The notes beneath the pieces are model-generated. The model did not search any database and was not told where the DNA came from. It was given only the letters and a program-made list of their open reading frames with translations. 48,251 bases of DNA from Kofleriaceae bacterium (GTDB lineage Bacteria; Myxococcota_A; Polyangia; Haliangiales; Haliangiaceae). The stretch covers positions 1-48,251 of the forward strand of contig JBKJLC010000068.1 in assembly GCA_046597055.1 (NCBI GenBank), written 5' to 3'. The position numbers were made by a program, and so were the translations under genes. Numbering within the stretch: the stretch's first letter is position 1; the number at the start of each line of letters is the position of its first letter. Below, piece by piece: positions 6,903 through 36,338 of this stretch.

Positions 6903-8804
6903 TCAGATGAACGCGGCGTTCACGAAGGTCCGGAACCGCGTCACGACGTTGTCGGCGGCGTCGTATGCCTGGACCTCGAACGTGTATCGGTTGATGGTCA
7001 CCCCGTAGGTCTGCGGCGACGTGCAGGCCGTGAAGGCGGGCGCCGCCTGGCCGCTGAGGTAGAACCGGCACTGGGTGCCGGTGTGGCCCGAGGCGCTGAA
7101 CCCGTAGGTGACGCTGGTCTGGTTGAACCACACCTCACCGTCGCCGGGACCGCTGGTGATCGACAGCGTGGGCGGGATGGCGTCGACCGCGAAGCTGCGG
7201 CTGGCGGTGGCGGCGTTGCCGGCCGCATCGGTGGCGGTGGCAGAGAAGGTGTAATTGCCGCTGGCCAGCACCGGGGTGGTGTACGGCGAGCTGCAGTTGA
7301 CCGGGGCGCCGCCGTCGATCCGGCACTGCACCGAGGTGGGCGCGCCGCCGGTGGTGAACGAGAACGTCGGTGTGGCGTCGTTGGTCAGGCCGGCGGGACC
7401 GCCGGTGATCGAGACGGTCGGCGCGATGGTGTCGACCACGAAGGCGCGGGTGGCGGTGGCGGTGTTGCCGGCGGCGTCGGTGGCGCGGACCTCGAGAGTG
7501 TGGGCGCTGTCGCCGAGCGCGGCGGTGGTGTGCGGCGAGGTGCAGGCGGCGAACGCCGCGCTGCCCACCCGACACTGCACCGTGGTGGGCGCGCCGGCGG
7601 TGGTGAACGTGAACGTTGGCGTGGCGTCGCTGGTCGGTCCGCTCGGTCCGCCGGTGATCGCCACGGTCGGCGCGACCGTGTCGACGGCGAAGGCGCGGGT
7701 GGCGGTGCCGGTGTTGCCGGCGGCGTCGGTGGCCCGGACCTCGAAGGTGCGGGCGCCGTCGGCGAGCGCGGCGGTGGTGTGCGGCGAGGTGCAGGCGGCG
7801 AAGGCCGCGCTGTCGACCCGGCACTGCACCGCGGTCGGCGCGCCGGCGGTGGTGAAGGTGAACTCGGGGGTGGCGTCGCTGGTCGGGCCCACCGGGCCGG
7901 CCGTGATCGCCGCCGTGGGGGCGACGGTGTCGACCGTCCAGGTCCGGGTCGCGGGGGTCGGATCGAGGTTGCCGGTGGCGTCCTCGACCTGGACCGCGAA
8001 GGTGTGCGCGCCCTGGGCCAGCCCGGTGAGGGTGCGGGGCGAGGTGCAGGCGACCACCGCGGCACCGTCGAGGCGGCAGGTGTAGCGCGCGCCGGCGCCG
8101 GCGTCCGGCGACGAGAACGTGAAGGTCGCGCTGGTCGACGCCACCACGCCGGTCGGGCCGGTGACGAGCTGGGTGTCGGGGGTCGAGGTGTCGAGCGCCC
8201 AGGCGTGGGTCGCCGGCGACGGATCGGGGTTGCCGGCCAGGTCGGTGGCGGTGACCTCGAGCAGGTGGGCGCCGTCGAGCAGGTCCGCGATGACCAGCGG
8301 CGAGGTGCACGGGGTCGCGTCCGCGCCGTCGAGGCTGCACGCGAATGTCGCGGCCTCGTCAGCCATGAGCTCGAAGGTCACGGTGGTGCTGTTGTCGACC
8401 GGCTCGGGCGCGACCGGGATCGTGGTGTCGGGCGGGGTCAGGTCGACCTGCCAGGTGAAGGTCGCCGGGGTCGGGTCGGCGACGCCGGCATCGTCGACCG
8501 CGGTCGCCGTGAAGGTGTGCTCGCCCTCGGCGACCGGGACCTCGTGCGGCGAGGTGCAGGGCGTCGCCGCGGCGCCGTCGAGGCTGCACTGCAGATCGAG
8601 CCCGCCCGGCGTCGACGCCAGCTCGAAGACCGCGCGCGCGGCGTTGCTGCGCGCCGCGGGAGTGGAGACCAGCTGGGTGTCCGGCAGGTCGCCGTTGTCG
8701 CCGGGGCCGGCATCGGTATAGCTGACGTCCTCGCCGCAGCTGGCCGTGACCATCAGCGCCGCGAGGGTGAGCGAGGCGATCGAGGAGCGTCCGGGCGAAG
8801 GCAT
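6903..8804 (-). CDS. Lipoprotein with seven tandem bacterial Ig-like repeats (633 aa)
   Basis: MPSPGRSSIASLTLAALMVTASC lipobox, then 7 units of about 83 aa with pattern P-T-I..P..F.F....C..D.....CTSP......G.HTF.V.A.D.AGN....W/F.VD. The ORF-track extension to 9467 is IS3 sequence. Confidence 0.85.
   Translation of the reverse strand: MPSPGRSSIASLTLAALMVTASCGEDVSYTDAGPGDNGDLPDTQLVSTPAARSNAARAVFELASTPGGLDLQCSLDGAAATPCTSPHEVPVAEGEHTFTATAVDDAGVADPTPATFTWQVDLTPPDTTIPVAPEPVDNSTTVTFELMADEAATFACSLDGADATPCTSPLVIADLLDGAHLLEVTATDLAGNPDPSPATHAWALDTSTPDTQLVTGPTGVVASTSATFTFSSPDAGAGARYTCRLDGAAVVACTSPRTLTGLAQGAHTFAVQVEDATGNLDPTPATRTWTVDTVAPTAAITAGPVGPTSDATPEFTFTTAGAPTAVQCRVDSAAFAACTSPHTTAALADGARTFEVRATDAAGNTGTATRAFAVDTVAPTVAITGGPSGPTSDATPTFTFTTAGAPTTVQCRVGSAAFAACTSPHTTAALGDSAHTLEVRATDAAGNTATATRAFVVDTIAPTVSITGGPAGLTNDATPTFSFTTGGAPTSVQCRIDGGAPVNCSSPYTTPVLASGNYTFSATATDAAGNAATASRSFAVDAIPPTLSITSGPGDGEVWFNQTSVTYGFSASGHTGTQCRFYLSGQAAPAFTACTSPQTYGVTINRYTFEVQAYDAADNVVTRFRTFVNAAFI
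7173..7919 (-). repeat. Three tandem 249-bp units (Ig repeats 4-6)
   Basis: The block GAGCGCGGCGGTGGTGTGCGGCGAGGTGCAGGCGGCGAA recurs at 7515 and 7764 (249 apart); repeats 4 and 5 are near-identical in protein. Confidence 0.85.
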
Positions 8805-8904
8805 ACCGTGGTGTACCTGCGATGAAGCGAGGTCCGGTACCCCCGATCTGTGGCGCAAGCGGGCAACCGTGCGCCATCCCGGCGCAACCCTGGCACCCTC
8901 GTCG

Positions 8905-9094
8905 CCGGCGCGGGGCCGCCGGCCCGCGGCGCGCGGCGGATCGCCCCCGCAAGGGCGTCGCCCCAGTAGACGTGGGTCGCGTCGACCGCGACCGCCCACG
9001 GTGAGCGGACGTGCACGCCGGTCGCGATCGCGGTGGGGGCGCCGCCGTCCTCGGGCATCCGGTAGAGCGTGTGATCGATCTCGTCGAGGCAGTA
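8905..9094 (-). pseudogene. 3' remnant of a beta-propeller (YWTD/DUF5050-like) repeat gene
   Basis: Frame reads YCLDEIDHTLYRMPEDGGAPTAIATG...PWAVAVDATHVYWGD...GAIRRAPRAGG and begins abruptly at the IS junction. Confidence 0.6.
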
Positions 9095-9467
9095 TCGGCG
9101 CCGTGGCCTCGAACTCGCGGTTGAGGAGGTTGGCTGCGATCGGCTGGTCGTGATCGCTCATCGTCGTCGATCGATGGCGCCGACGAACCCGAGCCACGTG
9201 TCCCTCGGACTGCATGATCCGGATGATGCGATTGCGACCCACGCGCTCGTCGGCGAGATCTGCGTGGACCCGCGGGCTGCCGTACGTCCGACGGCTCCGG
9301 GTGAACGACTCGCCGATCCGAACCTTCAACCGCTCGTCCCGCAGCGCGCGCTTCGACGGCACGTGCCGCAGCCACGCATAGAAGCCCGAGGTCGAGACCC
9401 TGAGCACGGCGCACATCACGACGACCGGCCAGCAGGCCTTCTCCGCCAGGATGAACGCGAACTTCAT
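9095..9467 (-). pseudogene. IS3 OrfB transposase, truncated before the integrase (DDE) core
   Basis: MCAVLRVSTSGFYAW, RRTYGSPRVHADL, TTMSDH..PIAANLLNREFEATAP; similarity stops exactly where the W..D..Y catalytic segment should begin. Confidence 0.88.
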
Positions 9468-9917: not shown

Positions 9918-11249
9918 CTACGGGGTGAACCAGTTGCCCGACACCACGATCATCGAGAGCAGCTTGATGCTGTCGCCGTAGTAGCCGTCGGGCCCGGCCG
10001 CGACCATGCGGTCCCACAGCGCGTCGAGCCACGGACCGTTGGTGCCGGTGGCCGGGTCGACCATGGCGCTGACCGCGAACGGCGCGACGAACGACATGGT
10101 CGCGCTGCTGCCGGTGGCCTGGCCGGCGAGCGTGTAGCCGTCGCGGACGCGACCGGGGTCGTCGCCGGTGGTGGTGCGGATCCAGGTGTTGATCTTGCGC
10201 ACCGCCGCCTGGGCCCGCACGTCGCCGGTCATCAGGTAGTCGGTGGCCAGCCGCCACGGGTCGCGGCACGCGTTGTAGCCGTAGGCGCCATCGCGGGCAC
10301 CCTCGAGCCAGCCAGCCGGCGCCGGTCCTGGCGTGGCGCCGGTCGCGTTGATGACGAAGTCGGGCAAGAGCCCGGTGCTCGGCGCGGCGTTGGTCTGCAG
10401 GTACGCCACGGTCGCGTACAGCCGATCGACCACCGCGGTGAACCGGGCCGAGCCGCTGGCGGCGGCGTAGGCCTTGAAGTGCCCGGGCAGGAAGTCGGAC
10501 GACCGCGTGCCGGTGTAGTGCGAGTCGCTCGCGCTGACCCAGTCGCCGAGGAGAATCGAGTTGGACGGGTGGATGTCGCCGGCGAGCACGCCGGCGACCG
10601 CGGTGCGCGCGGCGGCGGCGTAGTCGACCGCACCGGTCGAGCCCCACTGGCGATGGGCGAGCAGCAGCGCGTACGCGATGTCGAGATCGCCATCGGTCGC
10701 CGAGTTGGAGCCCGACACGTTCTGGCAGCTCTGGTCCTGCGCCCACGCCATCAAGCCGGGCGTGATCGGGCTCGGGTGCCCGACGTAGTAGGCGTGGAGC
10801 CCGTCGAAGATCTGGCGGGCGTCGGGATCGTGGCCGGCCATCAGCACCGCGAGCAACATCCCGTAGCCGTGGCCCTCCGACACCGTGTAGGCCGCGGTCG
10901 CCGGCGTGGTCTTGACCCGGTACTGGCCCGCGATACAGGCGGGCTCCAGGTAGCGCGACTTCCAGGTCGTGTAGAACGCCGCGGTCGCGGCGTCGAGCTC
11001 GGCGCGGGTGTGGTTGCCCGGGTAGCGCACGCCGGTGCCGTGATAGCCGCTGTGGGTGCCAAACGGATGGCCGAGGCCACCGGCGGGTGGATCGCCACCG
11101 TCGACCGTGGACGCGCCATCGGCGCCGCCGCCCCCGTCGACGAGCGCGGCGTCATCGCCCGCGCCGCTGTCACACGCCGCGGCGGTCGCACACGCCGCGA
11201 ACGCCAGCGCCACCCACCGATATCGACCCAGCCTTGAAACATTCTTCAT
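9918..11249 (-). CDS. Glycoside hydrolase family 8 lipoprotein (lichenase/chitosanase type), 443 aa
   Basis: GAGG SD; signal ending AAAC; TVSEGHGYGMLLAV, NSATDGDLDIAYALLLAHRQWG, TRSSD, YNACRDPWR, YYGDSIKLL. Confidence 0.9.
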   Translation of the reverse strand: MKNVSRLGRYRWVALAFAACATAAACDSGAGDDAALVDGGGGADGASTVDGGDPPAGGLGHPFGTHSGYHGTGVRYPGNHTRAELDAATAAFYTTWKSRYLEPACIAGQYRVKTTPATAAYTVSEGHGYGMLLAVLMAGHDPDARQIFDGLHAYYVGHPSPITPGLMAWAQDQSCQNVSGSNSATDGDLDIAYALLLAHRQWGSTGAVDYAAAARTAVAGVLAGDIHPSNSILLGDWVSASDSHYTGTRSSDFLPGHFKAYAAASGSARFTAVVDRLYATVAYLQTNAAPSTGLLPDFVINATGATPGPAPAGWLEGARDGAYGYNACRDPWRLATDYLMTGDVRAQAAVRKINTWIRTTTGDDPGRVRDGYTLAGQATGSSATMSFVAPFAVSAMVDPATGTNGPWLDALWDRMVAAGPDGYYGDSIKLLSMIVVSGNWFTP

Positions 11250-11402
11250 CGGGACCTCGCTGGGGACGAGCCCCACGTGCATGGAGCGCGACGCGGGGAT
11301 GATCGGGTCACGCCGATCGTCGCCGCTCGCCCCGCCGGTTCTGCAGGACCTTGCCAGGAGTGAACCCCGGGGTCGAGCGCGGACCCCGTGTAGGCTCGCG
11401 TG

Positions 11403-14096
11403 GTGAAGCTCGCGTCGGTCGCCGTCCTCCTCCTCGCCGTCGCGTGCGGCCGCACGTCGCCACGCTCGGCGCCCCCGGCGGCGCCGCCTCCGCCGACGCC
11501 GCGGGCCAGCGGCGCCGCCATGCCTGCCCCGGTCGAGGCGCCGCCCACGCTGCGGCTGCCGCGGCGGGTCGAGCCGGTCGCGCACCGCGCCACCCTGCGG
11601 GTCGACCCCGCGGCCACCACCTTCACCGGCGCGATGGAGATCGACGTCAAGATCGTGACGCCGGCGCCCGTGATCTGGCTGCACGGCTATCAGCTGCAGG
11701 TCGAGGCGGCGACCGCCGAGCGCGGCGGTGACAGCGTCGCGCTGACGGTCACCCCCCATGGCGAGGACCTCCTCGCGCTCCACGCCGCGACCCCGCTCGA
11801 AGGCGCGTGGACGCTGAAGCTGCGCTATCGCGGCGCGGTCGAGCCGACCGGGACGACCGGCCTGTTCCACCAGCAGGAGGGCGATGCCTGGTACGCGTAC
11901 ACCCAGCTCGAGGCGACCTACGCACGCCGGGTGTTCCCGACCCTCGACGAGCCCGATCGCAAGACGCCGTGGACGCTGACGCTCGAGGTGCCGGCGGCGC
12001 TGACCGCGCTCGCCAACACGCGCCCGGTCGACGAGCAGCCGGCCGACGCGGGCTGGAAGCGGGTGCGCTTCGCGCCGACTCGTCCGCTGCCGTCCTACCT
12101 GATCGCGTTCGCGGTCGGTCCGTTCGAGATCGCCGACGCCGGCAAGAGCCGCTCCGGCGTGCCGATCCGGATCGTCGCCACCAAGGGCAAGCTGAGCCAC
12201 ACCGCCATCACCGCGGAAGTCGTGCCGCAGGCGCTCGCGCTGCTCGAGGACTACTTCGACCAGCCCTACCCGTACGACAAGCTCGACTTCGTCCCGATCC
12301 CGGTCACTGTCGGTTTCGGGGCCATGGAGAACCCGGGCCTGGTGACCGTCGTGAGCCGGTCGATGCTGTTCGATCCCGCCAAGCCAACGCCGAACGACCG
12401 GCGCGGGATCGCGTCGCTGGCCGCCCACGAGCTGGCTCACCAGTGGTTCGGCAACAGCCTGACGATGGCGTGGTGGGACGACATCTGGCTCAACGAAGGC
12501 CTGGCGACCTGGATGGAGGACCGGATCGTCCACGCGATCGCCCCGCGGCCCGACGACGCCTTCAGCATCGCCGACGCCCATGGCCAGGCGCTGTGGGCCG
12601 ACAGCCTCGCCACCGCGCGCGCGGTGCGCCAGCCGATCGCCGCCGCCGGTGACATCGAGAACGTCTTCGACGGCGTGAGCTACGCCAAGGCCGGCGCGGT
12701 GCTCGCGATGTACGAGCGCTGGATCGGCGCCGACGCGTTCCAGCGCGGCATCCGCGCGTACGTGAAGCAGCACGCCGATGGCGTGGTCACCACCGCTGAC
12801 TTCCTGGCGGCGATCGGGGCCGCTGCCGGACGCGACGTGTCGGGCCTGTCGAGCTACCTCGACCAAGCCGGCGCGCCGCACCTGCGGGTGGACCTGCGCT
12901 GCGAGGCCGGCCAGCCGCCGACCTTGACCTTGAGGCAAGCGCGCTACCTGCCACCGGGTGCCGCCACGCCCGCGGTCGCGAGCACGCCGTGGACGATCCC
13001 GCTGTGCGTCGCCCACGATCGCGACGGCGCCCGCGGCGAGACCTGCGGCCTGGTCCGGGAGGCCACCTCCGAGCTCGCCCTCGACGCCAAGACCTGTCCG
13101 CGCTGGGTCGTGCCCAACGCCGGCGGCCTCGGTCACTACCGCCTGTCGATGACGCCCGCGCTGGTCGCGCAGGCGACCGGCTACGGCTGGTCGCGGATGT
13201 CGCCGGTCGAGCGGGTCGTCCTCGCCGGGGAGATCGCGACCATGATCCAGGCCGGCGAGCTCGACGTGGCGCTCGGGATGGCGCTGGTACCGCCCTTGAT
13301 GCGGGATGGCAGCCGGGCTGCCGTTGGCATGGCGGCCGCCCTCGCCTGGGTCCGGAACCTGGTGCCCGACGCCCGGATGGCGACCTACGATCGCTGGCTG
13401 GCCCGGACGTTCGGCCCCACGGCGCGCAAGCTTGGCTGGCAGCGCAAGCCGGGCGAGGCGCTCGACGTGGCGAGCCGTCGCGCCACCCTGGTCCCGCTGG
13501 TGGCCGCCGCCGGCGACCGCGCGATGGTGCGCGACGCGATCAAGCTGGCGCGCGGGTGGCGCAGCCTGCCGCGCGACACCCGCGGGCTGGTCCTGCGCAC
13601 CGCGGTCCGCGCCGACGGGGCCACCTACGACCGCATCCTCGCGGACGCGCGCGCCGAGCAGGATCGCGACACCCGTGAGGACCTGTACAGCGCGCTGTCA
13701 TCGACCCGGGATCCCGCGCGCGTCACGCAGACCCTGCACCTGCTGCTCGACGACAGGGTCGACGTCCGCGAGGTGATGTACCTGCCGTACGGCTTCTGGC
13801 GCGCGCCCGAGCGCGAGCTGGCGGAGCGCTTCGTCCGCGACCACCTCGACACCCTGCTCGCCCGGTTCCCCAAGGACGCGACCACCGGCGGCGGCGCGGT
13901 CTTCGCTTCGCTGTTCACCGGCGCCTGCGAGCCGGCCCGCCGTGACGAGCTGGCCGCGTTCGTGACCACCCGGTTCGCGTCGCTCCCCGGCGGCGCGCGC
14001 ATCGTGGCGCAGGCGATCGAGAGCATGGATCAATGCATCGCGTGGAAGGCGCAGGTCGGCCCGCAGGTCGAGCGCTGGCTCGCCACCCTGCGCTGA
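11403..14096 (+). CDS. M1-family zinc aminopeptidase lipoprotein with ERAP1-like C-terminal domain
   Basis: LLLAVAC lipobox; TQLEATYARRVFPTLDEP, GAMEN, HELAH-x18-E (WLNEG), SYAKAG. Start is 11400 or 11403. Confidence 0.93.
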   Translation: MKLASVAVLLLAVACGRTSPRSAPPAAPPPPTPRASGAAMPAPVEAPPTLRLPRRVEPVAHRATLRVDPAATTFTGAMEIDVKIVTPAPVIWLHGYQLQVEAATAERGGDSVALTVTPHGEDLLALHAATPLEGAWTLKLRYRGAVEPTGTTGLFHQQEGDAWYAYTQLEATYARRVFPTLDEPDRKTPWTLTLEVPAALTALANTRPVDEQPADAGWKRVRFAPTRPLPSYLIAFAVGPFEIADAGKSRSGVPIRIVATKGKLSHTAITAEVVPQALALLEDYFDQPYPYDKLDFVPIPVTVGFGAMENPGLVTVVSRSMLFDPAKPTPNDRRGIASLAAHELAHQWFGNSLTMAWWDDIWLNEGLATWMEDRIVHAIAPRPDDAFSIADAHGQALWADSLATARAVRQPIAAAGDIENVFDGVSYAKAGAVLAMYERWIGADAFQRGIRAYVKQHADGVVTTADFLAAIGAAAGRDVSGLSSYLDQAGAPHLRVDLRCEAGQPPTLTLRQARYLPPGAATPAVASTPWTIPLCVAHDRDGARGETCGLVREATSELALDAKTCPRWVVPNAGGLGHYRLSMTPALVAQATGYGWSRMSPVERVVLAGEIATMIQAGELDVALGMALVPPLMRDGSRAAVGMAAALAWVRNLVPDARMATYDRWLARTFGPTARKLGWQRKPGEALDVASRRATLVPLVAAAGDRAMVRDAIKLARGWRSLPRDTRGLVLRTAVRADGATYDRILADARAEQDRDTREDLYSALSSTRDPARVTQTLHLLLDDRVDVREVMYLPYGFWRAPERELAERFVRDHLDTLLARFPKDATTGGGAVFASLFTGACEPARRDELAAFVTTRFASLPGGARIVAQAIESMDQCIAWKAQVGPQVERWLATLR

Positions 14097-14618: not shown

Positions 14619-17600
14619 CTACCGAGGCGACACCCGCTGCGCCCACGCCTTCACCCCGGCCCAGCGGGCGTGCCATCGGCCGCCCGCGATCCGCTGCAGG
14701 GTCCGGTGGGCGTCATCCTTGCGGCCAAGGGCCAGCTCGGTCTGGGCCTGGCGCTGGAGCCAGGTCGGGTTGGTAGCGTCGACCGCAAAGGCGCGGCGCC
14801 ACAGGCCGAGCGCACGCTCGAGCTGGCCGGTGCGCTCGAGCGACTCGGCGGCGACCTGGAACGACGCACCGTCGCGCGGGTTCAGATCGATCGGCGTCGA
14901 CAGATAGCGCCAGGCCTCGTCGTCGCGGCCGACCGCGCCGAGCAGCTCGCCGAGCAGCCGCTCGCGGGCCGGATACTCGGGGTCCATCGCCCGCCAGGCG
15001 CGGCCCACCGCCAGGGCGCGCTCGACCGCCGCGTCGCGCTGGACGCCGACCGCGGTGCGCGCGAGCTGGCCGTGCAGCCCGATCAGGTGCGTGTGATCGA
15101 CGCGCAGCTGCGAGAGCGCCACCGGGCGGTCGACCTCGGCGGCCAGGGCCTGGTGGAGCAGGTCGGCGGCGGGGCCAGCCTCGCCGCTCCGCTCGGCGAG
15201 CCCGCTGGCCAGCCGCAGCAGCGCGGGCTCGCGCGGATAACGGTGCCGCGCCAGCGCGAGGATCGAGCGCGCGCGGTCGAGCCGGTTCCAGGTGGTGGCA
15301 GCCGCGATCACCTCCGCCAGCTGCGCGGCATCGGCGGCCAGGGCGCTGGCCCGCTCGAGCGCGAGGTCGAGATCGGCGTCGGGGCTCAAGGCCGCCGCCG
15401 CGGCGAACGCCATCACGTGCTCGAGATCGCCGGCGCCGAGCACCCGCTGCTTCCAGGCCGCCATCGCGAGCTGCCAGCCGACCGGGCCGCGCGCGCTCTG
15501 CTCGACGGTGTACTTCGCGTCGTGGTGGATGACCGGCGGCGGCGCGTCGAGGTCGACGTCGGTGAGCAACGCGACCCAGCGGTCGGCGGCGTCCTCGCGG
15601 GCCCCGGTCGCGGAGGTGCCTTGGGCCATGCGCGCCGCCTCCTGGCGGATCCGGTTGCGCCACGGCCCGACCGCGACGGTGTCGAGCACGTCGACCGCGC
15701 GCGGATCGCGCCACGCGTGCTGCTGGGCGATCCGGCTGGCGGCGATCACGCGCAGGTCGTCGGCGCCCGGGTGGCGCACGACGAAGCGGTCGAACGCGGC
15801 CCGGGTCGCCCGCAGATCGCCCCGCTCGTTGAGGGCCAGCACCTCGCGGAAGCGCGCCAGGGTCGCCACCAGGCCGCCGGTGCGATCGGCGACCGCGCCG
15901 AACCCGTCGGGCCGCGGCCGCGCGCGGAACCCGACGCTCGCGCGCTGGTAGTCGGCGACCGGACCCACGGCGGCGCCGATCGCCGCGGTGGCGTCGGTGG
16001 GCGTCATCCACGGCAGGCTGGCGCCGATCAACCCGAGCTCGGCCGGGTGCAGCGGGCCGCGCGCCGCGAGCGCGCGGACGCTGGCGGCAACAAGGCTCGG
16101 GTTGCCCTGCGCCAGCCACGACGCGATCAGCTGGTGGTGCGCGTACGCCCACGCCGGATCGCCGGCGGTCAGGGTCGCGAGCGCGGCCTGCCAGTGGGTC
16201 GGCGCCCGCAGCGGCAGCGCGATCACCACCGGCAGCGTCGCGGCGACCGGCACCGTCGCGGCCGGGTCGGCCTGGTAGCCGATGGTGGTGGCGCGCCCGC
16301 CGAGGGTCAGCTCGAAGCCGGCACCGGCGCGGCGTGCGGTCAGGACCGTGGTGGTGCCGGCGGCCGCGAGCCGGCGGATCGCGACGATCACGCCGTCGGC
16401 GCCGAGCTCGAGCTCGAGCGGGTCGCCGACCCCGGCCGGGACCAGCCGGAGTGTCCGAGGTCCGGACAGCGTGACCTGGTAGAAGCGCGCCAGCTGCTCG
16501 GGGCGCGGCGGCAGGATCGGCAGCAGCGCGGCCAGCAGCGCGGGTTCGTGATCGCCGACGGCGCGGGTGGTCTCGACGCCCAGCTCGGGATACCGATGGC
16601 GCAGCGTGACCCCGTCGTAGACCTGCTCCTGGACCAGCCCGGTGGCGAGGGTCTCGCGCTGGATGAAGTGGCCGTCGCGGTCGACCGTCAGCTCGGCGTC
16701 GGCGCGCCACCGCCAGCGCCCGGGCGCGACCCGCGTTCGCGCTTCAGCCAGCATGCGCCGGGCGTCGTCGGTGATCGAGCCGGTCGCGCCAGCCGCGCCG
16801 GCGACGAGCTGGTCGGCGAGCTCGTCGAACCGCGTGCGCATGAGCCCCGGCATCCACTCGGTGAGATCGTCGAGGCGCCAGTCGCCCGCGTACTGGAACG
16901 CGATCGGGCTGAGCCCCGACCACGCCGGCTGCCGCGACCAGCCCCCAGCCCCCTCGAGCAGCCCGCCACCGAGCTGCGGGTCGAAGGTCGGGCGCCGCGA
17001 CGCGAGTCTGCCGCGCAGGTCGACGCGCTCGCGCCGGAGCAGCCGGGGCTGGTCGCGATCGGCGAACCCGGCCCGACCGCGAGCGAGCTTGTCCTCGAGC
17101 TTCATGCCGAGGTCGGCACCGGCACCGGGATCGGCCGACGGGGTGGCCGGGGCGCGGGTCGCCACGGCGCCAGACGCGGTCGCCGCTGGCTCCTTCTCCG
17201 GTTGCGCCTCGCTGGCGGCCTTGCCCGCCTCGGGGCCGCGGCCGCCGCCACCGACCCCGTAGCCGGCACCGGTACCGCTGCCGAGCGTGCCGAGCGTGCC
17301 ACGCGCCGCGACGAAGCCGCCGGCTTGCTGCTGGGCCAGCATCGCCTGCGGGTCGTACCGCCACGGCACCGGCGTGCGCCACACCGGGCCCTGATCGATC
17401 ACCGGCGGCGCGACCGGGCCGGCCGCGAGGGTCGCCGGCGTCGCGTACGGTGCCCAGGTCACGCCCGCGCCGCGGGCGACGCCGTACTGCGCGTACATCG
17501 CGTCGTTCTCGAGCACGATCAGCGACGTGTGCGCCGACAGCAGGAAGTGCGCCTTGCCCAGCGCGACCATCTCGGCCTTGCGCGCATGGTAGGCGGCGAT

Positions 17601-19931
17601 CGCGCGCTGGTCGTCGCTCGGGCACGGCGTGGTCGTGCACGGCGCCAGCGCCCGGTCCCCGGCGGTGACCAGCGCGTCGAGGCGGCGCTCGGCCCACATC
17701 CGCGGCAGGTAGCCGGCGTCCCCGGCGGCCCGGCGGGTGTCCGCGATCCGGACCGTCTGCGACCACGGCCGGCCGCCGACCTGGCCGCGCAGCGTGACCG
17801 CGTCGACCGCGGCCCGCGCCGGCACCCGGGCGATCAGCTCGATGTCGTCACCGGCCGCGACCTGACCGTCGCGCAGGTAGGTCGTCACCTCGCCGTCGGC
17901 GAGCGCGGCGCCGGGCCCGACCGTGGTGGTCAGCGTGGCCGCCAACCCGGTGACCCGCGGCGTGTACAGCGACGCGACCAGGTCGAGCGCGCGCCAGGCC
18001 AGGTCGTCGCCCAGATCGAGATGCACGGCAGCACCACCGGTCGCGTCGGCCAGCGCCGACAGCGTCGGCAGGTCGACGCCATCGCCCACCCCGACGCCGA
18101 TGAACGTCGCCCGGCTGCCACCCGCGGCGCCACCGCCGGTGACCGCGTCGCGGAGCTGGTCGATCGTCCGCCGCTCGCCGGTGGCGGCGCCGTCGCCGAC
18201 GTACACGATGTACCCGGGCTGCCCGTCGAGCAGCCGGACCGCGCCGTCGAGGGCCGTGACCAGATCGGTCTCGCCGAGCCCACCATCCTCGGTGAGGTGA
18301 CGGTGCAGCGCCTTGCGGTCGATCGCCTGGGCGTCCTGCCAGGTCCCGAACCGGCGGTGGGTGGCGTCGAACGCGATCGCGAGGACCTGGTCGGTCTCGT
18401 CGATCTGCTGGATCAGCTGGTCGACGAAGTCGGCCTGGGCCCGCCGCTCGGTCACGCCGCGCGACGCGCTGGTGTCGCCGAGGATCACCCACCGGTGCGG
18501 GCGCTGGGCGGCCGGCACCACCGCGGCCGGGTCGACCTCGGGCCGGACCCGCACCAGCAGATACTGCTGGGCGTCGCGGATCGTGGTCGCGACCGAGACC
18601 GCCGGGGCGCCCGGCTTGCGCAGGCGCAGGACCAGCGAGTCGCCGAGCCGCGCGCCCTGGCTGCGGTGGCTGACGAGCACGTCGGTGCCATTGCGCTGCA
18701 CGTCGATGCGGTGCGACGGCGAGCTCAGCTCGCAGCCGTCACAGCCGACGATCTTCACCTGCATCGCGACCTCGGCCACCGGCGCCTCCAGATCGGGGAG
18801 CGGCACGGTGAGCGTGAGGTCGTCGTAGGTCCGCGCGAGTGGCTGGGTGTACGCGAGGATCACGCGCCGCTCCTGGCGCGGGAACAGCGGGAAGATCCGC
18901 ATCGACACCCGGGACGCCCCCATCTGCTCGAGCAACGCCGGATCGCGGCGCTGGTAGACGATGTCCTCGTAGATGCGCCGGGCCCGCATGCGCTCGACCA
19001 CCGCCGACTCGGTCAGCCGGCCGTCGACGTACATCGCCAGCCGCGCCACCGCGGCATCGGGCGGCAGCGCGAACTTGTAGACGCCCTCGAGGGTCTGGTC
19101 CTGCGGGTTGTGGAAGGTCTGGTCGAGCGCGACCCGCGCGATCTGGTTCTCCAGGTGGACGTCGATCGTCAGCGCGCGCAGCGGCAGCGGCCACTCGCGC
19201 TCGGGCCACTGCGGATCGCGGGCGACCAGCACCCCTGACCGGGCCGGGCCACGGTCGGCGTGCTCGTCCTTGCGGCGGCGCTGGGCCACCCAGCTCACCA
19301 GGTGCGACAGCCGCGGCGCCGGGCCGCGGGTCGGCGCGGTCGTCTTCGTCATCGTGCCCTGCTCGCCGGCGGCCACGACCGCCTCGGCCCCGGCCGAGCG
19401 CATCGCGACCCGGCCCCGCAGCACCGCGGCGGTCGTCCGGTCGGCGGACGCCTCGATCAGGAAGCGGGTGCCGAGCACCGCGACCTCGCCGTGCGCGGTC
19501 TCGACCGTGAAGACGCCCTGCCCGGGGACCACGTCGAGCAGCACCTGGCCGCGGATCCGGACCTGCCGCGGGCCGATCACCTCGACCGCGCCGCCGGCGC
19601 CGAGCTCGGCGGTGGTGCCATCGGCCAGGGTCGCGTGGTCGGGCCGGGCGCCGGGCTCGGTCGCGACCGCCGGTACCGAACCCGGATCGACGCCGCGCAG
19701 GTTGGCGATCACCAGCGCGCCGGCGGCCGCCGCGATCAGCCCCCAACCGGCGATCGCGACCGGCGAATGCTCGCGACGGCGGCGGCCGTGGCGCGCGATC
19801 AGCCCGGCGCGGATCCGCGCGCGCGCCTCGGGCCGCATCGCCGATGGCTCGGACTCGGCCAGCAGCGTCTTCAGGTTGCCTTCGAGGATCTCGCCGTCGC
19901 GATCGGGATCGGGAGCCAGGGGGGTGGTCAT
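14619..19931 (-). CDS. Putative giant anti-sigma factor: cytoplasmic N-terminus, TM, FecR domain, VIT, vWA, LolA-like segment and TPRs (1770 aa)
   Basis: TM about aa 58-78; FecR-like FTVETAHGEVAVLGTRF; VIT (ARVALDQTFHNPQDQTLEGVYKFALPPDAAV...ARRIYEDIV...DPALLEQ); vWA MIDAS DTSAS...T...VGDG; C-terminal TPR-like helices. ATGA overlap with the upstream ECF gene. Confidence 0.85.
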   Translation of the reverse strand: MTTPLAPDPDRDGEILEGNLKTLLAESEPSAMRPEARARIRAGLIARHGRRRREHSPVAIAGWGLIAAAAGALVIANLRGVDPGSVPAVATEPGARPDHATLADGTTAELGAGGAVEVIGPRQVRIRGQVLLDVVPGQGVFTVETAHGEVAVLGTRFLIEASADRTTAAVLRGRVAMRSAGAEAVVAAGEQGTMTKTTAPTRGPAPRLSHLVSWVAQRRRKDEHADRGPARSGVLVARDPQWPEREWPLPLRALTIDVHLENQIARVALDQTFHNPQDQTLEGVYKFALPPDAAVARLAMYVDGRLTESAVVERMRARRIYEDIVYQRRDPALLEQMGASRVSMRIFPLFPRQERRVILAYTQPLARTYDDLTLTVPLPDLEAPVAEVAMQVKIVGCDGCELSSPSHRIDVQRNGTDVLVSHRSQGARLGDSLVLRLRKPGAPAVSVATTIRDAQQYLLVRVRPEVDPAAVVPAAQRPHRWVILGDTSASRGVTERRAQADFVDQLIQQIDETDQVLAIAFDATHRRFGTWQDAQAIDRKALHRHLTEDGGLGETDLVTALDGAVRLLDGQPGYIVYVGDGAATGERRTIDQLRDAVTGGGAAGGSRATFIGVGVGDGVDLPTLSALADATGGAAVHLDLGDDLAWRALDLVASLYTPRVTGLAATLTTTVGPGAALADGEVTTYLRDGQVAAGDDIELIARVPARAAVDAVTLRGQVGGRPWSQTVRIADTRRAAGDAGYLPRMWAERRLDALVTAGDRALAPCTTTPCPSDDQRAIAAYHARKAEMVALGKAHFLLSAHTSLIVLENDAMYAQYGVARGAGVTWAPYATPATLAAGPVAPPVIDQGPVWRTPVPWRYDPQAMLAQQQAGGFVAARGTLGTLGSGTGAGYGVGGGGRGPEAGKAASEAQPEKEPAATASGAVATRAPATPSADPGAGADLGMKLEDKLARGRAGFADRDQPRLLRRERVDLRGRLASRRPTFDPQLGGGLLEGAGGWSRQPAWSGLSPIAFQYAGDWRLDDLTEWMPGLMRTRFDELADQLVAGAAGATGSITDDARRMLAEARTRVAPGRWRWRADAELTVDRDGHFIQRETLATGLVQEQVYDGVTLRHRYPELGVETTRAVGDHEPALLAALLPILPPRPEQLARFYQVTLSGPRTLRLVPAGVGDPLELELGADGVIVAIRRLAAAGTTTVLTARRAGAGFELTLGGRATTIGYQADPAATVPVAATLPVVIALPLRAPTHWQAALATLTAGDPAWAYAHHQLIASWLAQGNPSLVAASVRALAARGPLHPAELGLIGASLPWMTPTDATAAIGAAVGPVADYQRASVGFRARPRPDGFGAVADRTGGLVATLARFREVLALNERGDLRATRAAFDRFVVRHPGADDLRVIAASRIAQQHAWRDPRAVDVLDTVAVGPWRNRIRQEAARMAQGTSATGAREDAADRWVALLTDVDLDAPPPVIHHDAKYTVEQSARGPVGWQLAMAAWKQRVLGAGDLEHVMAFAAAAALSPDADLDLALERASALAADAAQLAEVIAAATTWNRLDRARSILALARHRYPREPALLRLASGLAERSGEAGPAADLLHQALAAEVDRPVALSQLRVDHTHLIGLHGQLARTAVGVQRDAAVERALAVGRAWRAMDPEYPARERLLGELLGAVGRDDEAWRYLSTPIDLNPRDGASFQVAAESLERTGQLERALGLWRRAFAVDATNPTWLQRQAQTELALGRKDDAHRTLQRIAGGRWHARWAGVKAWAQRVSPR

Positions 19932-20563
19932 GACGGCACCTCCTCGAGCGCGTGGCCGAGGGTGGAGAAGGTTTCCTTGAAAGCGCGGCGGGCGCGGGCG
20001 AGGAGCGACTTGGCGGCGTCGACCGACAGGCCGAGCTCCGACGCCAGATCCTCGAGGCTGCGCTCGTCGACGTACTTGCGCGCGAGCGCGAGCCGGTACT
20101 GTTCGGGTAGGTGCGCGATGGTCAGGTTGACCAGGTCGCGGGTCTCGGCCCGCGCCAGCACCTCGCCCGGCAGCGGCGCGCGCTCGAGGGCGTCGTAGAG
20201 CTGGGTGAGCGAGGCGTCGATCCGATCCCAGCGCTCGGCGACCGCGTCGGTACGGTGGTGGGCGCGCAGGTGGTCGCGGATCACGTTGCGCGACAGGGTG
20301 GTCAACCAGGTGCCGACCGAGCCGCGGGCCCGGTCGTAGCTGCCGAGCTGCGTCATGGCCCGGGCGAACGTGTCCTGGACGATGTCCTCGGCCAGCTCCT
20401 GGTCGCGCCCGACCCGATAGAAGACGAAGGCATACAGGCCATCGACGTGGGTGTCATAGAAGCGCCCGAGGGCGTCGGGGTCGCCCCGGCCGGCCGCCGC
20501 CAGCTCCGCCGCTGGCCCGCTGCGGAACAGGCGTGATAACAGGCTCGCCAGGGGTAGGCTCAT
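19928..20563 (-). CDS. ECF-family RNA polymerase sigma factor (211 aa)
   Basis: Region 2 (LYAFVFYRVGRDQELAEDIVQDTF...TWLTTLSRNVIRD) and region 4 (LPEQYR...SLEDLASELGLSVDAAKSLLARARR); GAGGAG SD. Confidence 0.95.
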   Translation of the reverse strand: MSLPLASLLSRLFRSGPAAELAAAGRGDPDALGRFYDTHVDGLYAFVFYRVGRDQELAEDIVQDTFARAMTQLGSYDRARGSVGTWLTTLSRNVIRDHLRAHHRTDAVAERWDRIDASLTQLYDALERAPLPGEVLARAETRDLVNLTIAHLPEQYRLALARKYVDERSLEDLASELGLSVDAAKSLLARARRAFKETFSTLGHALEEVPS

Positions 20564-20590: not shown

Positions 20591-21949
20591 ATGCCCCCCG
20601 AACTGTCACCGAGCCGTCCCGAGGTGTCGCCCGCCCCGGCAGATCGCGGCAGCGCGCTCCCGGACGGGCAACGCTTCCCCCCGGCCGAGGGTCCCACCGG
20701 CGTGCGTTCGGGCGTGGCGATCGCCATCGGTGTGTCGGCCATTGTGCACCTCGCAGTGCTGGTCGCGCTGATCACGATCGAGCCCCGGGAGCGGCTCGCC
20801 GTAGCGCCACCGCCGCGCCTCGAGCTCGTCACCACGCCGATCGAGATCGCCCTCTTCACCCTGCCCGCCCCCCCGCCGTCGCCGTCGCCGTCTCCCTCTC
20901 CCTCTCCCTCTCCTTCTCCTTCTCCTTCTCCTTCTCCCTCTCCCTCTCCCGCTCCTTCTCCCACTCCCGCCCTCTCCGCCTCCACCGCCGTCCCCGACAC
21001 CGCCGTCCCCGACACCGCCGTCCCCGCCCCCGACACCACATCCACCCCCGACAGCGCCCCCGGCCGGCTCTCCATGCGCGGCCACCCCGGCCAGACCCGG
21101 CTCGCGCCCCCCTCGGTCGCCCGCGCCTACACCCTCCCCGACGAGGGCAGCCCGGAGATCCACCCGCCCGACTACCAGCCGCCCGCGCCCACCGGCGAGC
21201 TCGCGCCCTCCGGGGGCGGCACCCACTCCAGCGATCGGCCCGGCTTCACCGGCAACGTCGCGCGCGACGGCAAGGTGTCGTTCGCGGACGACAAGGCGTT
21301 CAGCTACGAGATCCGGCTGCCCACACCGAAGAAGGTCGTGCGCGGCGTCGCCAGGGGGCTCGACAGCTGGCAGCGCGATCCCTACAAGCAGGTCCGCCGC
21401 GCGGTGCGCAACCCGTCCCGCCTGTGCCAGGTCGAGGAGGATGGCTGCGTCATCACCGACGAGGAAGGCGACCTCACCGACCACGTCGCGAAGGTCCAGG
21501 AGGACCAGGGCGTCTTCATTCCGGTGGTCGGCGGCGCCTTCAACCCGAGCGACGCGATCATGCGCAAGGCCGGCATCGATCCGTACCAGTCGGAGAAGCT
21601 GGCCTGGATGGACCGCACCCGCGACGAGCGGGCCGAGCTCGGCCGCGCCCACCGCGCCAAGGCGCTCCGCAGCACCCAGCAGACCGTGCAGAAGCACCTG
21701 CGCGCGCTGTGGGGCCGGGCCGAGCTCGACGCGGCGGCCCGGCGCGCCGCGCTGTTCGAGATGTGGGACGAGTGCGCCGAGGACGGCGAGCCCGCGACCA
21801 TCGAGGCCGGGACCCAGGCGCGCCTCGCGATCATCGCCTTCATCCGCGCCCGGCTCCCGGCCGGCTCGTCGGGTGCGTACCTGGCGGCCGAGCTCGCGAC
21901 CCTGAACTCCCGTCGCACCTCGAAGACGGTGTTCGCGCCCTACGAGTAG
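20591..21949 (+). CDS. Single-pass membrane protein with TonB/TolA-like anchor, (SP)n linker and unknown C-terminal domain
   Basis: TM VAIAIGVSAIVHLAVLVALI with S-x3-H; Pro/Ser-rich linker; well-formed high-GC3 C-terminal coding region. The start may be GTG at 20702. Confidence 0.7.
   Translation: MPPELSPSRPEVSPAPADRGSALPDGQRFPPAEGPTGVRSGVAIAIGVSAIVHLAVLVALITIEPRERLAVAPPPRLELVTTPIEIALFTLPAPPPSPSPSPSPSPSPSPSPSPSPSPSPAPSPTPALSASTAVPDTAVPDTAVPAPDTTSTPDSAPGRLSMRGHPGQTRLAPPSVARAYTLPDEGSPEIHPPDYQPPAPTGELAPSGGGTHSSDRPGFTGNVARDGKVSFADDKAFSYEIRLPTPKKVVRGVARGLDSWQRDPYKQVRRAVRNPSRLCQVEEDGCVITDEEGDLTDHVAKVQEDQGVFIPVVGGAFNPSDAIMRKAGIDPYQSEKLAWMDRTRDERAELGRAHRAKALRSTQQTVQKHLRALWGRAELDAAARRAALFEMWDECAEDGEPATIEAGTQARLAIIAFIRARLPAGSSGAYLAAELATLNSRRTSKTVFAPYE
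20879..21025 (+). repeat. Hexamer microsatellite (Ser-Pro)12 plus 15-bp tandem repeat (TAVPD)
   Basis: (TCGCCG)2(TCTCCC)3(TCTCCT)4(TCTCCC)3 at 20879-20950; ACCGCCGTCCCCGAC x2 plus a partial copy at 20984-21025. Confidence 0.95.
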
Positions 21950-24064: not shown

Positions 24065-24241
24065 GGGGTCTCGCCGGGCGTCGACTTTGACCTGACGTAG
24101 CGTCCTCGCACACCCCCGTGCGACGGAGCGCAGGCGACTCACGCCGATGCCACTCGGTGCGCTTCGCAATGCGACCGATTTCCATGACTTGGGGCACACG
24201 CGGCTGGTGCACACGTCTTGCAATTCCCGCCGGCCAGAAAG

Positions 24242-28687
<4,446 letters not shown>

Positions 28688-28782: not shown

Positions 28783-28832
28783 TCGACAGCAGCTTGGCGG
28801 CTCGAGGGCAGGAAGTCCGGGCTCTTGAAGCG

Positions 28833-28848
28833 TGGCATGGCGGGTGCA
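28833..28848 (+). promoter_or_regulatory. Sigma54 (-24/-12) promoter of the fliM-flhA operon
   Basis: TGGCATGGCGGGTGCA fits GG-N10-GC and lies 12 nt before ATG 28860. Confidence 0.65.
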
Positions 28849-28859
28849 CGACCGGCGGC

Positions 28860-29792
28860 ATGAGCGAGCAGGCACTCGATCCTGCCGAGCTGGAGGCGAT
28901 TCAGGCGGCCATGCGCCAGAGCGCACCGGCCGGTCGATCTTTTCAGCCGTCCACCGAGGTTTCCTCCCTGTCGCTGTTCGCGACCGATCGCGACGCGCTC
29001 GCGGCCCGGCCGCGGCTCGGCGATCTGGCGGTCCGCTGGGCCGGTCGCCTGGGCAAGGTCCTGCGCGGGTATCTCGGCGACATCGGCGTCGACGCGATGG
29101 GCGCCGAGCTGGTCGACGCCCCCACCGTGGCTGACGAGCTGCGGTCGATGTGGCGGGCGCTGATCGTCGTCGAGGGCCGCGGGACCATCGTGGTCGCGAT
29201 CGGCGGCGGGCTGGTCGAGGCCGCCGCCGCTCGCCGCTGCGGTGCCCGTCAGCCCGGCACGTCGCAGCGGGGGCCGTCGCCGGTGTCGCTGCGCTTGTTC
29301 GCACCCGCCGGCGAGGCCGCGATGAGCGCGTTCGAAGAGGCGTGGACGGAGCTAGACCGCACCCCGGTCCGCCGCGAGCCGGTCGGTCCCGATGCGGTTG
29401 CCGCCGCGCTCGGCAAGGACAGCGTGCTGGTCGCGACCCTGGCGATCTCCGGAGCGGCCACCGGTCGCATCCGCATCTACGCGCTGCCCGGCGTGCTGAC
29501 CGTGCCCGCGACCGCGCGCGCCCCGGTGGCGGTCGACTCGCGCGCGATCGCGGCGGCCCTGGGCGCGGTCACCGTCGAGGTCCGGGTCGATCTCGCCACC
29601 ATGCCGATGAGCCTGTCGGAGCTGCGGGCCCTTCGTCCCGGCTCCGAGATCACGCTGCCGGTCTTCGTCGACGAGCCCCTGCCGATCTACTGCGGCGGCG
29701 TGCTCAAGGCGTGGGGCCGGCCGGTCGTGTCGCGCGGCGTGCTCGCCGTCGAGATCTCAGCCCTTGCCACGCCTGGAGGAGGACGCCCATGA
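28860..29792 (+). CDS. fliM: Flagellar motor switch protein FliM (divergent)
   Basis: N-terminal LDPAELEAI resembles the FliM CheY-binding peptide; C-terminal SpoA domain (VEVRVDLATMPMSLSELRALRPGSEITL...GRPVVSRGVLAVEI); lies before fliN. Confidence 0.7.
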   Translation: MSEQALDPAELEAIQAAMRQSAPAGRSFQPSTEVSSLSLFATDRDALAARPRLGDLAVRWAGRLGKVLRGYLGDIGVDAMGAELVDAPTVADELRSMWRALIVVEGRGTIVVAIGGGLVEAAAARRCGARQPGTSQRGPSPVSLRLFAPAGEAAMSAFEEAWTELDRTPVRREPVGPDAVAAALGKDSVLVATLAISGAATGRIRIYALPGVLTVPATARAPVAVDSRAIAAALGAVTVEVRVDLATMPMSLSELRALRPGSEITLPVFVDEPLPIYCGGVLKAWGRPVVSRGVLAVEISALATPGGGRP

Positions 29793-30064
29793 ACGACCCT
29801 GCTGCGATCACCGACGTGAAACGCCTCGAGATGCTCCTCCACGACGTGCCGCTCGAGCTCACGGTCGAGCTCGGTCGCGTCAAGCTGAGCCTGTCCGAGC
29901 TGGCCGGCCGCCTCGGCCCGGGCTCGATCATCACCCTCGACAAGGTCACCGGTGCGCCGCTCGATGTGCGCATCAACGCGCGCCTGGTGGCCCGCGCCGA
30001 GGCGGTCGCCGTCGGCGACCGTTGCGGCATCCGCATCCTCGAGATCGTCGAGAAGGAAGGCTGA
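29789..30064 (+). CDS. fliN: Flagellar motor switch protein FliN
   Basis: LHDVPLELTVELGR...GSIITLDK..GAPLDVRINARLVARAEAV..GDRCGIRI; GGAGG SD; ATGA overlap. Confidence 0.92.
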   Translation: MNDPAAITDVKRLEMLLHDVPLELTVELGRVKLSLSELAGRLGPGSIITLDKVTGAPLDVRINARLVARAEAVAVGDRCGIRILEIVEKEG

Positions 30065-30065
30065 C

Positions 30066-31346
30066 ATGCGGCTGGTCGTCGCCGTGGCGTCCCTCATCTT
30101 GATGGTCACCGCCGCGGGAGCGACGGCCGCACCCGATCGCCGGTTCGAGGTCCTCGACCGGGGCGATCAGGTCGAGGTCATCGCGACCGGCGTCACGGCC
30201 AAGCCTGGTGCGAAGGTGGCAGTGGTGCGCGAGCGGCTCGAGATCGAGCTGGCCGGCATGCCGCGACCAGGCGCGCGCGAGAGCGCGGACGCCACCGTCC
30301 AGATCGTCGAGATCCGGGGCAGCCGGCGGGTGCTCAGCATGAAGCTCCGGCTCGAGCACGACGGCGTGGTCGCCGTGCGTGGTCTCGCCGCCTTTGTCCA
30401 GACCGGCGATACGCTGCATGTGACGATCCCGCGGCAGCTGCCAACCACCGCGGCGGCCGCGCCGGTGACAGCGACCGCGCCGACCCAGCCGGCGGCGGTC
30501 GTCACGCCCCCGGTGACCCCGCCGGTCACGTCGGCGTCGGTCGAAACCCCGCCAGCGGCCGCGACCGCCGGTGCCACGCCGGGCAAGCCGTCGATCGGCG
30601 GTGCCACCACCCCCGCGGCCGCGACCGTCGTCGTCACCGCCGAACCCCCGCTGCCACCGTCCGTCACCGGGACCGGGACCGGGACCGCGCCGTCGGTCAC
30701 GCCGCTGCGCCCGCAGCCACGGTCCCCGTTCGCCGGCAGCCGCTGGCTGCTGGTCCTGGTCGGCCTGGTCCTGGTCGGTGGCGGCGTCGCGGCCGTCCTC
30801 AAGCGCAACCGCAAGCCGCTGGTCGCTGGCGCCGATATCGACGTGATCGCCAGCCGCTCACTGGGCGGCAAGTCGCGGATCGTGTGGCTGGCTGCCGGTG
30901 ACCGCGAGGTGCTGGTGGCGGTGTCGCCGCAGGCGGTCCGGCTCCTCGGCTCGTGGCGCCGCGGTGATCGCGGCGACCGTACCGACCGCACCCTGGGCGG
31001 CCTCGGCGAGCTGGGCGAGCTCGACGAGCTGGGCGAGCTCGAGCTCGAGCCGGCCCTGGCCGAGCGACCAGCCCGGCAGGAAGACGAGCGCGCGGCCCGG
31101 CGGGACCTCGAGCGCCCGGTCCGGCCAGACACCGAGCGCCCGCGGGCCGAGGTCGCGCGCGGCTCCTCGGTGCACCTGCAGCCCAGCGCGGCGGTGTCCG
31201 GAATCCTGCGGCTGCGTGGGCAGTCAGCTGCCGCCAGGGCGGAGACCAACAGCAAGCCGCCGTCTGACCACGCAAGCGACGACCCCGAGGCCGACGAGCA
31301 GTGGGCGCGCGACGTCCTGGCCAATACCAACGGGGGACCGCGGTGA
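30066..31346 (+). CDS. fliO: Extended FliO (signal peptide, periplasmic domain, P/T linker, TM, FliO domain, long tail), 426 aa
   Basis: TM WLLVLVGLVLVGGGVAAVL followed by IDVIASRSLGGKSRIVWLAAGDREVLVAVSPQAVRLL; lies between fliN and fliP. Confidence 0.75.
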   Translation: MRLVVAVASLILMVTAAGATAAPDRRFEVLDRGDQVEVIATGVTAKPGAKVAVVRERLEIELAGMPRPGARESADATVQIVEIRGSRRVLSMKLRLEHDGVVAVRGLAAFVQTGDTLHVTIPRQLPTTAAAAPVTATAPTQPAAVVTPPVTPPVTSASVETPPAAATAGATPGKPSIGGATTPAAATVVVTAEPPLPPSVTGTGTGTAPSVTPLRPQPRSPFAGSRWLLVLVGLVLVGGGVAAVLKRNRKPLVAGADIDVIASRSLGGKSRIVWLAAGDREVLVAVSPQAVRLLGSWRRGDRGDRTDRTLGGLGELGELDELGELELEPALAERPARQEDERAARRDLERPVRPDTERPRAEVARGSSVHLQPSAAVSGILRLRGQSAAARAETNSKPPSDHASDDPEADEQWARDVLANTNGGPR

Positions 31347-36288: not shown

Positions 36289-36338
36289 GCGCGCTGACGC
36301 GGTGACCGCGGGACGACTGATTACGGCTGGTTAGGTGG

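Follow-up and report, generated by a model that had tools for sequence, protein, structure and literature searches.

In the FecI/FecR, FoxI/FoxR and PupI/PupR systems (ECF243 clade), a sigma factor of the extracytoplasmic function (ECF) type is paired with a partner that has a single transmembrane (TM) helix and a FecR beta domain with a Gly-Thr motif. It has been reported that FecR cleaves itself at Gly181-Thr182 and that the cut fragments stay together until they are pulled apart, RseP acting afterwards (PMC12036975). In the sigmaV/RsiV pair of Bacillus subtilis, the anti-sigma factor serves as the receptor of a hostile enzyme, lysozyme, and also inhibits it; it is made in larger amounts on induction and is cut by signal peptidase (PMC5014341). 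The DdvS/DdvA pair of Myxococcus xanthus contains a large single-pass anti-sigma factor with periplasmic tetratricopeptide repeats (TPRs), a three-helix head with zinc and a CHAT protease, and its RseP-dependent release controls a defensive regulon that includes CBASS and CRISPR (PMC11506125). Among the classified ECF groups, ECF226 and ECF289 have predicted vWA-DUF3520 anti-sigma factors at position +1, and ECF267 has one with FecR-like and TPR domains and no TonB receptor (PMC7826278). [quoted passage not shown] Here we describe a gene pair from a Kofleriaceae bacterium (GenBank assembly GCA_046597055.1, contig JBKJLC010000068.1, a stretch of 48,251 nucleotides, hereafter the window), in which an ECF sigma factor gene is followed by the gene of a 1770-residue protein that joins a FecR-like domain to an ITIH-like VIT-vWA core. 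The pair, its domain order, a set of invariant residues and a promoter-like motif are conserved, and they define what is apparently an undescribed variant of ECF/anti-sigma signalling; no description of this architecture or its regulon was found in a literature search whose coverage excluded subscription papers.

Both open reading frames (ORFs) were recovered on the minus strand at the expected coordinates, and at their junction GTCATGACC the ECF stop codon overlaps the next start (ATGA, 19928-19931). The features of the pair are as follows:

19928 to 20563, minus strand: ECF sigma factor gene, 211 residues (Pfam regions r2 and r4_2, SigW as best PDB match, identity across loci)
14619 to 19931, minus strand: gene of the 1770-residue single-pass putative anti-sigma/sensor protein, translationally coupled to the ECF gene (318 homologues, ATGA overlap)
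19788 to 19895, minus strand: cytoplasmic two-helix head (residues ~13-48), putative truncated anti-sigma domain (invariant residues, model helices, weak complex score)
19704 to 19760, minus strand: single TM helix (residues 58-76), from hydropathy
19287 to 19637, minus strand: FecR-like juxtamembrane beta domain (residues ~99-215; PF04773 and profile matches)
19467 to 19472, minus strand: Gly154-Thr155, predicted self-cleavage site, matched to the FecR site by motif
17442 to 19196, minus strand: ITIH heavy-chain-like core with VIT (~246-440), vWA with MIDAS (~479-660) and a closing hybrid/helical part (~661-830), from profile, model and Foldseek
16917 to 17441, minus strand: hypervariable Gly-rich linker (residues ~831-1005), candidate protease bait (low conservation; the bait role is a proposal)
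16218 to 16784, minus strand: LolA/RseB-like beta domain (residues ~1050-1238; hhalign against LolA, model topology)
14622 to 16202, minus strand: helical solenoid or TPR region (residues ~1244-1770; C-terminal half model and fold searches)
20604 to 20629, minus strand: CGACACC-N14-TGACA before the ECF gene, predicted as an ECF-specific promoter

The smaller protein has the sigma2 plus sigma4 layout of about 200 residues that defines ECF (group IV) factors, with Sigma70_r2 at 36-104, r4_2 at 147-194 and no region 3 (Pfam). Its best PDB match is SigW (E 7e-17), and by such matches it stands nearer to the SigW and SigE types than to the sigma factors of the FecR systems; its identity among Kofleriaceae loci is 61-90%. 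A genome scan for the large protein, of which 318 homologues were collected, returned 43 loci, mostly in Kofleriaceae/Haliangiales bins and three in Planctomycetota. Four of these loci end before the upstream gene; in 38 of the other 39 an ECF gene (partial in one case) lies directly upstream on the same strand, the exception being a planctomycete homologue (L042) without an ECF match within 8 kb upstream, and the ATGA overlap is kept in 35 of the 38. The two proteins very likely form an anti-sigma/ECF pair. The genome itself holds a single copy of the FecR-VIT-vWA architecture and three further VIT-vWA genes that lack either the FecR match or the head. A profile of the middle domain matched 460 representatives, with FecR and VIT present in all 24 long matches tested; over 201 genomes drawn across the phylum it matched only two, this one and another of its genus, so the distribution is patchy, without implying absence elsewhere. 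The unpublished genomes G076 and/or G081 are included in some family tallies (e.g., the 60/101 and 101/101 given below), no claim hanging on them, and their loci are excluded from alignments A2-A8 and from the pair, promoter and regulon counts.

At the N-terminus of the large protein, a conserved head of about 55 residues (49-85 among 109 full-length homologues) precedes the TM helix, which is the sole strong hydrophobic segment of the protein; one strong peak is likewise present in 102 of the 109. Residues N19, L23 and L44 of the head are invariant in this set, and in the model of the N-terminal half its helices span 9-26 and 34-48. The cytoplasmic domain of class I anti-sigma factors consists of four helices, and only two stand before the TM helix here; in one homologue (P0250), the place of the head is taken by a zf-HC2 zinc anti-sigma domain. 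Cleavage of the TM segment as a signal peptide, or its use as a lipoprotein signal, is unlikely because it lies behind this long conserved head, no lipobox was found there in the 109 homologues and AxA occurs in only 25 of them. A pair of arginines, as in twin-arginine (Tat) signals, lies near the TM helix in 42 of 116 homologues. Three homologues (P0239, P0251 and P0176) have a signal-peptide-like or truncated N-terminus, without head or Gly-Thr, and are possibly stand-alone secreted forms.

Behind the TM helix, Pfam places a FecR match (PF04773) at 100-175 (E 2e-8), and the domain profile matches PupR (6ovk and 4m0n) with E ~1e-9. Within it, Gly154-Thr155 is invariant in the 109 full-length homologues and present in 58 of 67 full-length distant representatives; judged by the FecR-domain motif, it would correspond to Gly181-Thr182 of FecR. 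The genome also encodes two full-length M50 site-2 proteases, and self-cleavage followed by regulated intramembrane proteolysis (RIP) of the RseP type is the probable route of activation. The protein thereby shares with the FecR systems an ECF partner, a FecR domain after one TM helix and the Gly-Thr motif. It departs from them in that the transducer-binding C-terminal end of FecR is absent, VIT following directly (Pfam), in its roughly 1550 extra residues, and in the lack of a transducer: a search of the 94%-complete genome turned up no STN-bearing TonB transducer, the sole STN match being a PilQ-like secretin. A canonical TonB partner was rejected on this ground, which extends to the genome what the earlier note on this locus, made from the letters alone, had seen for the window. 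In its predicted way of working the protein resembles a FecR-type RIP anti-sigma factor, but it falls outside FecR cell-surface signalling proper. Elsewhere in the same genome, three single-TM FecR-domain proteins (L076, L077 and L079) carry other C-terminal modules (TPR-like, or TonB-C-like by eye), which suggests that this lineage uses FecR as a modular switch. A second, more distant FecR-VIT-vWA class, seen as open frames of 1200-1700 residues, occurs in many family genomes (e.g., G032:C15, G016:C78 and G085:C30).

The core that follows is like that of the human ITIH heavy chains. VIT has a Pfam match at 252-361 (E 6e-23); vWA has no Pfam match in this copy, although the family profile and the structural model do show it, and its MIDAS residues D486, S488, S490, T555 and D580 are invariant in the 109 homologues. 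The core profile aligns with ITIH4 residues 28-596 (E 2.5e-20). In the model of the N-terminal half (predicted local distance difference test, pLDDT, 86.5; predicted template modelling score 0.84), two cytoplasmic helices, the TM helix and the FecR beta domain lead into an ITIH-like core whose top Foldseek match is ITIH1 (6fpy, E 1.6e-27 over 615 columns). The likeness to ITIH4 and ITIH1 thus extends to the whole VIT-vWA-hybrid core, the canonical MIDAS and a long variable region directly after it. Mean column conservation of that linker is 0.21, compared with 0.67-0.78 in the core, and in homologues it is 93-246 residues long with 19% Gly; it sits at the position of the protease-susceptible region of ITIH4, and by this analogy we infer that it may act as a protease bait. 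Unlike the human proteins, this one is membrane-anchored, has an anti-sigma-like head and a Gly-rich linker, and carries LolA-like and TPR modules in place of the ITIH C-terminus; trapping itself is predicted. The MIDAS is complete in 41 of the 67 distant representatives and degenerate in 25, one of these being named Planctomycetaceae, and the existence of this MIDAS-less clade indicates that the metal site is dispensable somewhere.

The C-terminal half was modelled with pLDDT 94.4 as a beta domain followed by a TPR solenoid. The beta domain, with a topology of helix, six strands, two helices and seven strands, is probably LolA/RseB-like, judged by profile and predicted topology: hhalign against a 30-sequence LolA alignment gave 80% (E 1.4e-5), equal to the positive control of LolA against DUF2092, while residues ~1050-1238 reached only 6% against DUF2092, three other domains of the protein gave 2.3% or less, and leads from the Atlas stood at 0.85-0.87. 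With a single LolA sequence there was no match (0.3%), a PDB sequence search returned noise only, and fold searches with the C-terminal half returned TPR proteins only and no LolA-type match. The DdvS/DdvA entry 8rot is among the fold matches of the TPR region. DdvA itself has no FecR, VIT, vWA or LolA-like domain in its available description, and no CHAT domain or zinc motif was found in the 1770-residue protein. In the same way, no DUF3520 Pfam match was found, and none of ECF226, ECF289 and ECF267 is described in the available text of PMC7826278 with VIT or with FecR and vWA together; other promoter motifs are reported for them, and neither GACAC nor TGACA appears in the available supplement passages. 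The present ECF may nonetheless belong to one of the classified groups. The earlier note had described the ATGA overlap, about 57 cytoplasmic residues with one TM helix, the FecR-like and VIT domains, vWA with an intact MIDAS, the Gly-rich linker and the long TPR-like tail, all of which held when the domains were parsed as above, just as the conservation of the pair that it had proposed to check held across genomes. It had overlooked Gly154-Thr155, the LolA-like domain that precedes the TPRs and the promoter motif.

CGACACC-N14-TGACA stands before the ECF gene in 47 of 51 upstream regions, always with a spacer of 14 (shuffles, mean 0.25), and stays with the ECF gene where the divergent gene moves away. 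In the family genomes, the motif with a start codon 6-13 nucleotides downstream was found in 60 of 101 and the reversed pattern in 5 of 101. The distance from TGACA to the start is 8-9 nucleotides in 26 of 41 cases, which fits leaderless transcripts with TGACA as the -10 element. Across 61 genomes, spacer 14 accounts for 163 sites and spacer 13 for 37, an excess that may be partly codon-frame bias, so the start-codon version of the count is relied on. From these sequence patterns, the motif is likely to be the promoter of this ECF. A total of 117 unique sites (part of all sites, some chosen by eye for a good spacer) includes 73 followed by an ORF that begins at +5 to +13, of which 11 are ECF genes and 62 other genes; because sites are shared among kin, motif and regulon counts are not independent events. 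The largest class among the 62, with 13 members in two main sequence groups, resembles tissue inhibitors of metalloproteinases (TIMPs), with a Cys directly after the predicted signal peptide; in 11 aligned members this Cys follows A-x-A in all, and C-x-C occurs in five. Two alpha-2-macroglobulins, from near-identical genomes, are also led by the motif (another match, L189, falls within the coding region of an alpha-2-macroglobulin and is not taken for a promoter), and the remaining genes encode Cys-rich lipoproteins, OmpA-like, HEAT, RCC1-like and uncharacterised exported proteins. By a crude filter, 34 of 38 members of the recurrent groups have a hydrophobic N-terminus. TIMP-like secreted proteins with a Cys at the predicted mature N-terminus (L209-L238) are found in 39 of 101 family genomes, whether or not these have the system, and a membrane-anchored HEAT-repeat protein of ~780 residues lies behind the motif in four genomes (L113, L173, L174 and L208), its homologue in the present genome being without the motif.

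The explanation that we tentatively favour, at somewhat less than an even chance, is that of an ITIH4-like bait-and-trap anti-sigma factor that frees its ECF on envelope attack, with a foreign protease as the likeliest attacker. The two-helix head would hold the co-translated ECF at the inner membrane, and, as in FecR and FoxR, self-cleavage at Gly154-Thr155 would leave an ectodomain of about 1600 residues docked non-covalently, where it would shield the TM stub from an RseP-type protease. In the least certain step, modelled on ITIH4, cleavage of the linker and MIDAS-dependent capture of the attacker would alter the VIT-vWA conformation and undock the ectodomain, after which RseP-type cleavage would free the ECF. 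The freed ECF would transcribe CGACACC-N14-TGACA promoters, including that of its own operon, thereby renewing the sensor as sigmaV renews RsiV; in relatives it would also drive leaderless genes for secreted proteins, TIMP-like ones foremost. In the present genome, the predicted output is the operon alone, since no TIMP-like gene was found with the query used, nor a second strong motif site, and its alpha-2-macroglobulin lacks the motif. Proteolytic attack is preferred as the signal because the ITIH core has a variable region at the bait position, because the commonest regulon class resembles protease inhibitors and because RsiV sets a precedent for an anti-sigma factor as receptor and inhibitor (a likeness of working model, kinship in sequence not being expected); argued by analogy, a protease as the signal is possible but still doubtful. 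It is rather unlikely, taken as a whole, that this is a bacterial protease receptor in which an ITIH4-type trap acts through a FecR switch on an ECF inducing TIMP-like inhibitors and, in some lineages, alpha-2-macroglobulin, as an inducible anti-protease defence with bacterial versions of three classes of animal inhibitor as its parts.

Several observations weigh against the favoured explanation, including those just given for the output in this genome. The co-folding of ECF and head that the earlier note had proposed gave a score of 0.60, compared with 0.00 for the best of three controls, with at least 92% of contacts agreeing between runs and partner pLDDT of at least 74. This speaks for the pair but is graded weak, and it may reflect likeness to solved ECF/anti-sigma complexes. 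Of 157 solved pairs, 116 come up to the mark, as do 2 of 215 mismatched ones, but scores of 0.60 or under belong to only 18 of the former and to both of the latter. Sigma binding by the head is thus only weakly supported by modelling. Gly-Thr is missing in 9 of the 67 distant homologues, and those with a degenerate MIDAS otherwise keep the architecture. The linker is Gly-rich, unlike the Pro-rich ITIH4 region, and the LolA-like and TPR parts are left unexplained by a protease signal. As to the regulon, most motif-led genes are of other kinds than TIMP-like, 11 of the 13 TIMP-like genes built the profile that counts them, and of 18 further such genes only 1 of the 14 from system-bearing genomes and none of the 4 from other genomes carries the motif. 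The identification as TIMPs is weak (Pfam E 0.03-0.09; best PDB matches agrin NtA, E 0.01, and TIMP-2, E 0.24), a three-sequence profile against the PDB returned antibody noise only, and the corresponding Atlas cluster has TIMP in 19% of its members. Although 101 of 101 genomes carry alpha-2-macroglobulin genes, only the two near-identical ones were seen behind the exact motif.

Other inputs can be imagined for the same anti-sigma and self-cleavage machinery. In the manner of an integrin, the vWA MIDAS might grip an acidic residue of a partner in the envelope or at the surface, so that ligand or force pulls the ectodomain off and the linker is a mere spacer. FecR is indeed activated by mechanical removal of the cleaved fragment (PMC12036975), the MIDAS is invariant in Myxococcota, integrin and adhesin vWA domains are among the fold matches and TPRs are suited to partner binding; yet the loss of the MIDAS in 25 of 67 distant homologues, the divergent gene as the only conserved candidate for a partner gene and the unexplained TIMP-like genes behind the motif make this unlikely. 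Quite unlikely is an envelope lipid or lipoprotein stress sensor, in which the LolA/RseB-like domain would bind mislocalised lipid as an RseB fused to its anti-sigma factor, the regulon consisting of exported repair proteins. That domain is nearly confined to this architecture, as the 24 long matches indicate, and lipoproteins and OmpA-like proteins are among the motif-led genes, but it is less conserved (0.57) than the VIT-vWA core (0.71-0.78), lies furthest from the self-cleavage site and has a LolA fold unconfirmed by structure search, and neither lol, lpt or bam genes nor chaperone genes turned up behind the motif.

A genuine FecR domain with its Gly-Thr site would also suit FecR-type cell-surface signalling with an unrecognised outer-membrane partner encoded elsewhere. 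With VIT directly at the place of the transducer-binding end, a secretin as the only STN match in the genome and transporters missing both among the genes seen behind the motif and among the recurring neighbours, this seems very improbable. We give as little credit to the view that the large protein is a mere target of the ECF, or that some other transcription factor binds the motif as a direct repeat of 21 bp (GACAC...GACA): the motif halves are alike, the complex score is weak, L042 lacks an ECF gene and some homologues start without a head, but the translational coupling and the conserved head, the fixed 8-9 nucleotides to start codons, as expected of a -10 element of leaderless mRNA, and the fact that the motif follows the ECF and not the divergent gene argue otherwise. 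The earlier note had inferred a self-contained trans-envelope system in which a metal-dependent vWA sensor controls the ECF directly, with no known characterised example. Self-containment agrees with the conserved pair and the missing STN transducer, whereas there is no sign that the protein crosses the outer membrane. Metal-dependent sensing is not the universal input of the family, given the degenerate MIDAS of distant homologues, and self-cleavage with RseP-type proteolysis is more likely than direct control. The architecture was indeed not found described, although ECF226, ECF289, ECF267 and DdvA are precedents.

Beside the pair, two features face the opposite way:

20668 to 20693, plus strand: GCAAC-N17-GGTC, another promoter-like motif of ECF type, oriented towards the divergent gene
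20702 to 21949, plus strand: divergent gene (TM helix, Pro-rich stalk, conserved C-terminal domain; no Pfam match)

This motif is present in 29 of 51 regions, with a spacer of 17 in 27 (shuffles, mean 2.4), and the divergent gene, a possible part of the system, has a homologue in 31 of 43 loci. Judged from the motif, the gene probably starts, leaderless, at GTG 20702; a start of the annotated type, at ATG 20591, would overrun both promoters. Other neighbours were rejected as parts of the system, a Na/H antiporter recurring in 5 of 43 loci and the M1 peptidase and a small ORF in none. Further off in the window, an ORF at 6903-9467 (minus strand) combines an N-terminal HTH_21 (IS3-type) domain with Ig-like repeats at its C-terminus and may be what is left of a transposase, fused to a surface protein, and a long ORF at 9918-13136 (minus strand) ends in a GH8 glycosyl hydrolase domain and overlaps the opposite-strand M1 aminopeptidase, its true start probably being much later. 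At 24218-28687 (plus strand) lies a 1489-residue CheB-CheR-PAS-histidine kinase-receiver hybrid, and 28794-48176 holds a large flagellar cluster (FliM/N, FliO/P/Q/R, FlhB, FlhA, FlhF, FliA, rod, FlgH/I/J/K/L and flagellin); Kofleriaceae (Myxococcota) are usually described as non-flagellated.

With this locus, the FecR self-cleavage switch would be seen to serve a very large sensory module without a transducer, and bacterial VIT-vWA (ITIH-like) proteins receive a first function that can be tested. With a predicted ECF promoter and regulon in hand, the system could be rebuilt in a laboratory strain even though its carriers are uncultured. If the protease explanation is true, the system would serve to detect attack by proteases among predatory soil bacteria, and would form a link of function with the animal ITIH and TIMP families.

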